NCBI RefSeq assembly: GCF_003334355.1
Contig: NZ_QOWP01000079.1
Direction: 5' to 3' (one strand)
Source: Escherichia coli
Lineage (GTDB): Bacteria > Pseudomonadota > Gammaproteobacteria > Enterobacterales > Enterobacteriaceae
Length of the DNA: 1,837 bases
Positions 1,535 to 1,740 of this stretch are shown piece after piece. The notes below the pieces were generated by a model. That model did not search any database. It saw only the letters and a list, made by a program, of their open reading frames with translations, and was not told where the DNA came from. The position numbers and the translations under genes are program-made. Position 1 is the stretch's first letter. Each line of letters begins with the position of its first letter.

Positions 1535-1740
1535 TTTAGCGTTGTTTAGAATGGCAATCATCATATATCCAAGACATGGCATTTGGTACATAGCTTGGGT
1601 CGGGATTTCAAATCCGCCCCCGTTGATGGGGTCGTTACAGTACGCGCATATCCGCTTTATGTGAAACAGGAAGATTTTTCTGATATCACTGCCACAGCAA
1701 AACACCAATTTCGAGACAAGTACGCGCGCGAGGGGTATCA

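Follow-up and report, generated by a model that had tools for sequence, protein, structure and literature searches.

What is the origin of the short, G/C-rich direct repeats found upstream of a small minus-strand gene in an Escherichia coli contig, and what might they do? The stretch of DNA analysed here, 1,837 nt in its full length and hereafter called the window, carries the 9-mer AGTACGCGC at positions 1639-1647 and again at 1719-1727, 80 bp apart, as part of the longer sequences ACAGTACGCGC (1637-1647) and ACAAGTACGCGC (1716-1727). A run of G/C residues, CCGCCCCCG, occupies positions 1614-1622. A first-pass annotation of the window had located these elements correctly and had suggested that they could be regulator binding sites or the relic of an older insertion sequence (IS) end.

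Taken by itself, the pair of repeats is no more than chance would produce. When the 238-nt leader was shuffled 5,000 times, 596 of the shuffled versions (12%) contained an exact 9-mer direct repeat, and the window as a whole contains 8 repeated 9-mers where 8.3±3.8 are expected. The pair acquires meaning because intact relatives of this locus carry a conserved family of such motifs, in multiple copies and all on the same strand.

The proposed link to an older IS end is rejected. Similarity of the leader to both IS ends of the window was no better than that of shuffled sequences (p=0.24 and 0.87). CCGCCCCCG does share 7-8 nt with the IS terminus core, but the 7-mer CCGCCCC, itself a short G/C core, is all that the leader and the IS ends have in common. 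Furthermore, the G/C run is polymorphic among copies of the locus (CCGCCCCCG, CCGATCCCCG and CCGCTCCCAG) and is present in genomes that have no IS nearby.

The window is a piece of an EcCIMP1-family island

The window consists of a piece of an EcCIMP1-family phage-inducible chromosomal island (PICI) lying between two ends of IS3-family elements, which we take to be IS629-like. The left end (positions 1-78, minus strand) is from the IRL side and includes the start of the orfA transposase gene; the right end (positions 1761-1837, minus strand) is from the IRR side of a second copy. The two termini, 78 and 77 nt long, have the same orientation, and a 25-nt inverted repeat pairs positions 54-78 with positions 1761-1785. 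Both recur at thousands of sites across E. coli genomes and hardly differ from the terminus of an annotated IS3-family transposase element in a related locus (L137). The 1,682 bp that they enclose agree at 100% identity with a part of the E. coli strain 510016 chromosome that is free of IS; beyond position 1760, the intact locus carries a different sequence. The IS junctions of the window were found in no complete E. coli genome. Probably, the window is the full length of a short draft contig with an IS copy at either end; a composite-transposon-like or circular arrangement of IS plus segment would fit the layout of the ends as well. The island is degraded here, one IS truncating a gp16-like gene and the other splitting a conserved module between its repeat copies B and C (see below). 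Because two IS insertions disrupt the island, the sequences in the window are relics.

Two genes are found between the IS ends. Positions 79-1064 (plus strand) correspond to the 3' half, approximately codons 375-701, of a gene for a P22 gp16-type DNA-transfer/injection protein cut by the left IS. The product matches positions 325-667/668 of phrog_770, "DNA transfer protein" (E=2e-91), and over this segment there is 100% identity to strain 510016, whose "injection protein" gene is intact. The second gene (positions 1124-1522 on the minus strand in the list of open reading frames) is a cargo gene encoding a small secreted protein of phrog_2651 (E=1e-22), a family without an assigned function; it holds the slot used by sieA in P22, where the order is 16-sieA. 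Two starts are conceivable for the minus-strand gene. PGAP chooses ATG 1564 (CDS 7046-7486 in L001), and a GTG at 1522 is preceded by a strong Shine-Dalgarno sequence, AGGGAGG, read from the sequence; use of this GTG would yield a protein beginning directly with its signal peptide. The figure of 238 bp given for the leader in the first-pass annotation assumes the GTG start, and the end of that leader at position 1760 is artificial, being set by the IS insertion. In L137, an independent IS3-family insertion is present at the start of the cargo gene.

The gene order of the island is an integrase gene at a tRNA, alpA, an antirepressor gene, ash, a TOPRIM/DUF927 primase gene and gp14-, gp7-, gp20- and gp16-like genes, continuing with the cargo gene, the non-coding module, a second alpA gene and a PerC-like gene. 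Its annotation shows no terminase or capsid genes. Both the gene content and the chromosomal context (proA-thrW / MarR-Vat) equal those of EcCIMP1 of strain MP1 and, on these grounds, the element is an EcCIMP1-family PICI. EcCIMP1 has the same integrase at thrW, two alpA genes, antirepressor, Ash, TOPRIM/DUF927 primase, DUF2824, DNA-transfer and PerC-like proteins, and many of its proteins recur without a single difference in the JA0072 island. The copy in the window differs from EcCIMP1 in being broken by the two IS insertions and in carrying a different cargo gene.

EcCIMP1 was found to be excised and transduced only in the presence of the P22-like helper phage Kapi1, which transduces it at very low frequency only; its second alpA gene is dispensable, and its packaging mechanism was stated to be unknown, no pac site being reported (PMC11773190). 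The module, the repeats and the terS-derived pieces that we describe here are not described in that paper. Other features of the island also recall P22-like phages. Since the island attL (L126 13695-13746) and the P22 attP region (L127 21293-21344) share 52 nt with 96% identity, the satellite and P22 use the same thrW attachment site. The DUF2824 (gp14-like) gene of the island (approximately L126 23756-24345) is 81% identical at the DNA level to Kapi1_055 (L140 27948-28536). Possession of its own set of P22-type gp14-, gp7-, gp20- and gp16-like genes makes for unusual PICI cargo.

A conserved non-coding module carries co-oriented repeats

Positions 1598-1760 of the window (plus strand) constitute the left third of a conserved non-coding module of about 465 bp, typical of EcCIMP1-type islands, that the second IS cuts at 1760. 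The module is present in 545 of 5,426 complete E. coli genomes, always in the chromosome and almost never annotated. Starting near position 1598, it remains 93-100% identical in contexts whose flanks differ on both sides; over all the copies compared, identity ranges between 85% and 100%. EcCIMP1 of strain MP1 itself carries the module, with 94.6% identity to the reference copy in L001, and all of the motifs. The module was not found in the sequenced phage collection, and the lone "plasmid" match is to a 4.9-Mb record that is evidently a chromosome. Two scans of species-representative genomes revealed no module outside the E. coli lineage, the one hit being a chance match in an actinomycete, and a literature search for the exact sequences found no paper containing them. 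Copies of the module tolerate indels of 1-2 nt and an 11-nt deletion. We rejected coding potential: the 1-2-nt indels break an 86-aa open reading frame on the plus strand, which has no PHROG match.

In IS-free relatives, the non-coding DNA runs on for 0.8-1 kb and the motif recurs there. Intact islands have five to six copies of it, all on one strand: copy A (CAGTACGCGCA), copy B (GACAAGTACGCGCGCG), copy C (GACCAGTACGCAC), a weak copy X, copy D (GACAAGTACGCGCGCG) and copy E, located about 50 nt after the PerC-like gene. The 23-nt version represented by copies B and D is repeated at 91-96% identity, 286 nt apart, and copies D and E share about 50 nt. In the window, copy A corresponds to ACAGTACGCGC (1637-1647, plus strand), a short member of the GTACGCGC family that is invariant in 11 distinct island copies; copy B together with its upstream flank spans 1697-1727 (plus strand) and contains the second of the repeats initially noticed. 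The entire segment from 1625 to 1711 is likewise invariant in 11 distinct copies, and a comparison across intact islands showed the repeats to be conserved in every island copy examined. With a motif family conserved across hundreds of genomes and long copies extending to 23-50 nt, the likelihood that the pair is a chance repeat or an older IS terminus is close to nil. Points in its favour are the 12% of shuffled leaders with a 9-mer repeat and the 7-8 nt that CCGCCCCCG shares with the IS core; the comparative data refute chance as the source of the repeats and the shuffle test refutes the IS origin.

Natural deletions have occurred between copies of the repeat. They join B to C in L136 (3940-4460) and B to D in L137 (2840-3260), with hybrid copies at the endpoints. 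Since these natural variants lost the segments between copies, individual copies are dispensable; every variant, EcCIMP1 included, keeps at least two units. A mosaic breakpoint maps 10-40 nt after copy D.

Purines and pyrimidines alternate over 11-15 nt in every copy of the repeat. The perfect alternating-CG palindromes TACGCGCGCGTA and TACGCGCGCGCGTA (L001 7924-7938 and 10639-10653; L126 30281-30300 and 32035-32056), which phage terS lacks, are found in copies D and E. Other palindromes are found at the edges of the module segment present in the window. The 13-nt perfect palindrome GGATTTCAAATCC (1603-1615, read from the sequence) lies at the left edge of the module, adjoins CCGCCCCCG and is where the homology boundary of L004 falls. 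It looks tRNA-loop-like, and its minus strand contains TTGAAA, a possible -35 element. A tRNA or att relic at this edge (GGGATTTCAAATCC) was dismissed: ARAGORN and Rfam find nothing, and the motif is absent from the real att regions of the island. A 24-bp palindrome, CAGTTGCAAAAAGTTTTGCAACTG (1739-1762), is situated after copy B and before copy C. Its right end is the insertion point of the IS, whose terminus supplies the last TG; the inverted repeat is present both in the window and in L001 and is deleted in the variant L136.

On the right, the module is followed by a variable slot holding defence-type genes that differ with the strain (AbiD, a Doc-family toxin, a Panacea-domain protein; L136 4747-5709, L002 10028-10489 and L138 5239-5694). 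Part of the module and the right-hand slot also occur in a lambdoid prophage context (L138).

The repeat unit resembles the terS gene of the helper phage Kapi1

Within copy B, the 18-mer TTTCGAGACAAGTACGCG at positions 1709-1726 matches nucleotides 171-189 of the terS gene of Kapi1 in 17 of 18 positions. Copies B, D and E (from L126 and the window) each have one mismatch to Kapi1 terS, at different positions, and copy B of MP1 has two; agreement thus ranges over 16-17 of 18 across copies. No other site in the 39-kb Kapi1 genome comes within two mismatches of the 18-mer, and the P22 genome has none within three. Scores as high as that of the 18-mer were reached by 2 of 5,000 shuffles of the leader and by 1 of 5,000 shuffles of the module (p≈2-4×10⁻⁴). 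A search of about 150 kb of control DNA found the 13-mer core nowhere but in the island copies and Kapi1 terS. The similarity falls on the coding strand and is in frame, AKHQ-FRDKYAR aligning with TerS residues AKHEDFRDKYAK (E=0.002). In copy E, it extends to a further 13-nt block, matching in 11 of 13 positions and correctly offset, for a total of up to about 45 nt. The copies also have in common a (CG)n extension, GTACGCGCGCG, on the 3' side of the 18-mer, and terS has no counterpart to it.

The TerS protein of Kapi1 is of the Sf6 type. It belongs to phrog_1482, not phrog_606, and matches PDB entries 3HEF/4DYC with E≈1e-91; the terS DNA is 98-99% identical to that of Sf6 and HK620. Altogether, these alignments make it very probable that the repeat unit derives from the terS gene of helper phages of the Sf6/HK620/Kapi1 type. 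Leavitt et al. (2013) reportedly mapped the Sf6 pac site to the region of gene 1 coding for the DNA-binding domain; the matched terS codons (47-61) fall only at the end of that region.

Sequences resembling the P22 pac site

The interval between the two repeats of the window contains a further candidate element. Directly upstream of copy B, the 22-mer GAAGATTTTTCTGATATCACTG (1670-1691, plus strand) agrees in 16 of 22 positions with the annotated P22 pac (22 bp within gene 3; BK000583 4-25) and in 11 of 12 with the pac core AAGATTTATCTG, a match expected by chance in about 1.4% of windows. Agreement is 17/22 with the pac-equivalent in an E. coli prophage terS and 20/22 with that in a metagenomic P22-type terS. 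When the module was aligned to all of P22 gene 3, the best local alignment fell on pac (p≈0.01-0.09). The 22-mer is invariant in 11 copies of the module. A regular-expression search for the published, experimentally derived pseudo-pac pattern, AA[GC][AG][TC][AT][AT][ATC][TC][TC]T[GT][ACG][ACG][ACG]TC, gave no match in the window or the islands, the 22-mer missing it at one position (T at 14).

Weak in-frame similarity to the P22 sequence continues for about 13 nt past the pac-like segment. A decayed P22-type terS gene was considered and discarded, as the similarity is not convincing beyond about 35 nt and PHROG 606 gives no match. Unlike P22 pac, the island site lies outside any terS gene, and Kapi1, the proven helper, has an Sf6-type TerS instead. 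The 22-mer is also 58% identical, in frame, to the Sf6-type unit (manual count) and may alternatively be a degenerate tandem copy of it. As a P22-type pac-like element, it has moderate support from these comparisons.

Elsewhere in the island, the resemblance to P22 is unmistakable. A 107-bp fragment of P22 gene 3 (terS) spanning pac, with 85-92% identity, is found at L126 17345-17451 (minus strand) and at L141 24954-25060; its 22-mer reads GAAGGTTTTTGTGGAGTCACTA. The fragment lies antisense within the N-terminal extension of an "ash family" open reading frame, occurs in about 445 complete E. coli genomes and is oriented opposite to the copies in the module.

Packaging signals, relics or regulatory sites

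In our view the repeats most likely serve as packaging-signal mimics recognised by the terminase of the helper phage, a reading that sequence comparison leads us to rate at about even odds. Under this proposal, helper TerS would recognise the repeat copies on replicated island DNA, and headful packaging would then start rightwards, toward the accessory-gene end of the island. Helper TerS is a likelier binding protein than a regulator. The suggestion of binding sites made in the first-pass annotation is probably correct in so far as the repeats resemble sequences recognised by a protein, but not as regards sites at which a transcriptional regulator acts on the minus-strand gene.

Precedents for such mimicry exist: PLE, P4, SaPIbov5 and EfCIV583 imitate the packaging signals of their helpers, and transduction of PLE depends on 14 identical bp (PMC11417361). 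In such pairs (PLE and ICP1 pac, P4 and P2 cos, SaPIbov5 and its helper's cos, EfCIV583 and its helper's pac), and putatively here, a satellite without its own terminase carries a short match to the packaging region of its helper. The 14 bp of PLE lie within 89 similar bp; the match here is 16-17 of 18, extending up to about 45 nt. The present, putative case differs from those four in having several dispersed, co-oriented copies, in deriving them from the terS coding sequence of the helper and in appearing to mimic two TerS types, those of Sf6 and P22, in one island. Elements packaged from pac have accessory and defence genes downstream of it (PMC12829572); correspondingly, the variable cargo of the island, AbiD included, lies to the right of the co-oriented copies. 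Moreover, no other packaging signal for Kapi1 was identified in the island. Several observations speak against a role in packaging. The stretch shared with terS is short, 18 nt and up to about 45 nt in copy E; the (CG)n extension is missing from terS, and conservation may reflect some different property; Kapi1 transduces EcCIMP1 very inefficiently despite the three pac-like copies; and L136 and L137 have lost the segments between copies. Binding of TerS to pac is weak and hard to demonstrate in vitro for both P22 and Sf6 (PMC9611059).

A serious alternative, if a rather unlikely one in our view, is that the units are terS-derived relics with no part in packaging: debris of recombination between satellite and helper, later duplicated, and serving as a recombination anchor. 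The module would then persist as conserved flanks between two accessory slots, its repeats acting as substrates for recombination and deletion. This would account for the deletions running exactly from copy to copy (B/C in L136, B/D in L137), for the mosaic breakpoint shortly after copy D and for the variable cargo on both sides of the module, and it agrees with the translation beyond the short units not being recognisable as TerS (PHROG 606 gives no match). It sits less well with the uniform direction of all copies, with a core stretch that is invariant in 11 variants and with the retention of two or more units in every variant, among them EcCIMP1, which is packaged by a helper having exactly this type of terS and in which no second signal for Kapi1 has come to light. 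We consider it less probable still that AlpA, the Xis-like AlpA_1, PerC or a helper regulator uses the repeats as operators or activator sites, or that they belong to the cargo-gene promoter. Proteins of the excisionase/AlpA type often bind direct repeats, and in many variants an AlpA_1 gene lies about 0.5 kb away on the right; inspection by eye suggests two weak candidate promoters on the minus strand, TTGGTG-17-TGaTATCAG near 1709-1680 and TTGAAA-17-TACCAA near 1611-1583. However, a consensus scan detected no sigma-70 promoter on the minus strand between 1523 and 1760, confirming the impression of the first-pass annotation, and it found none in the entire non-coding part of L004. The module is equally well conserved beside different cargo genes or one on the plus strand (L004), which disfavours a role as leader or operator of one particular gene. 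The module is also conserved where AlpA_1 is absent (L001, L136), and an identical unit follows PerC, far from the cargo gene. Such a role would, besides, leave the similarity to terS unexplained.

Two further readings were judged to be of very low probability. In one, the module encodes or forms a structured RNA, be it an sRNA or a leader, with pairing between the self-complementary CG tracts. Over the full module, the minus strand does fold somewhat better than its shuffles (z=-2.18, 1/100), with copies B and D paired in the predicted folds; the leader (z=-0.38) and the plus strand (z=-1.42) do not bear this out, there is no relevant Rfam match, and small indels and the 11-nt deletion are tolerated in a set of copies that diverge too little for covariation. 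Scarcely credible is the idea that the repeats are iterons of a replication origin, as might be imagined from multiple same-strand repeats in a primase-encoding island and from the AT-centred palindrome between copies B and C. What rules it out is the presence of true and unrelated iterons next to the primase gene, where a textbook cluster of three GTTGGTTCA facing three TTGAACCAAC directly follows (L126 23009-23140). A second such cluster (approximately L126 31600-31730), inverted, about 130 bp long and 81% identical, lies upstream of the PerC-like gene and recalls the ori/crr pair of P4.

A possible dual-specificity array

Returning to the repeats as packaging-signal mimics, the combined sequence data raise the tentative possibility, to which we attach distinctly less confidence, that EcCIMP1-type islands carry a multi-copy array of dual specificity, in which co-oriented mimics of the Sf6/HK620/Kapi1-type TerS site are joined by mimics of P22-type pac. 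Of the latter, one would be the 22-mer in the module and the other the 107-bp gene-3 fragment antisense in the ash open reading frame. SaPIbov5 is capable of dual packaging (pac and cos). Like the candidate proposed here, it is a single satellite with signals for more than one helper packaging system; the difference is that SaPIbov5 combines its own TerS and pac with a helper cos, whereas both candidates in the present island would be mimics of helper pac in the absence of a terminase gene. If the array is real, P22-like helpers of both of the two common terminase types could package one and the same satellite, and rightward packaging in situ would also mobilise the accessory and defence slots downstream.

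For the window itself the significance is modest, as it holds an IS-disrupted relic of the module. For the family, the terS-derived repeats and the gene-3 fragment provide concrete, short candidate sites for the packaging signal of EcCIMP1, for which the only experimental paper reported no recognisable packaging module (PMC11773190). These candidates might account for the rarity of Kapi1-like prophages among EcCIMP1 strains, with only 2 of 21 having one. The satellite is widespread, its module being present in about 10% of complete E. coli genomes, and the candidate sites bear on how it hijacks P22-like phages and would indicate which DNA could be mobilised with it, such as defence genes and the neighbouring Vat island.
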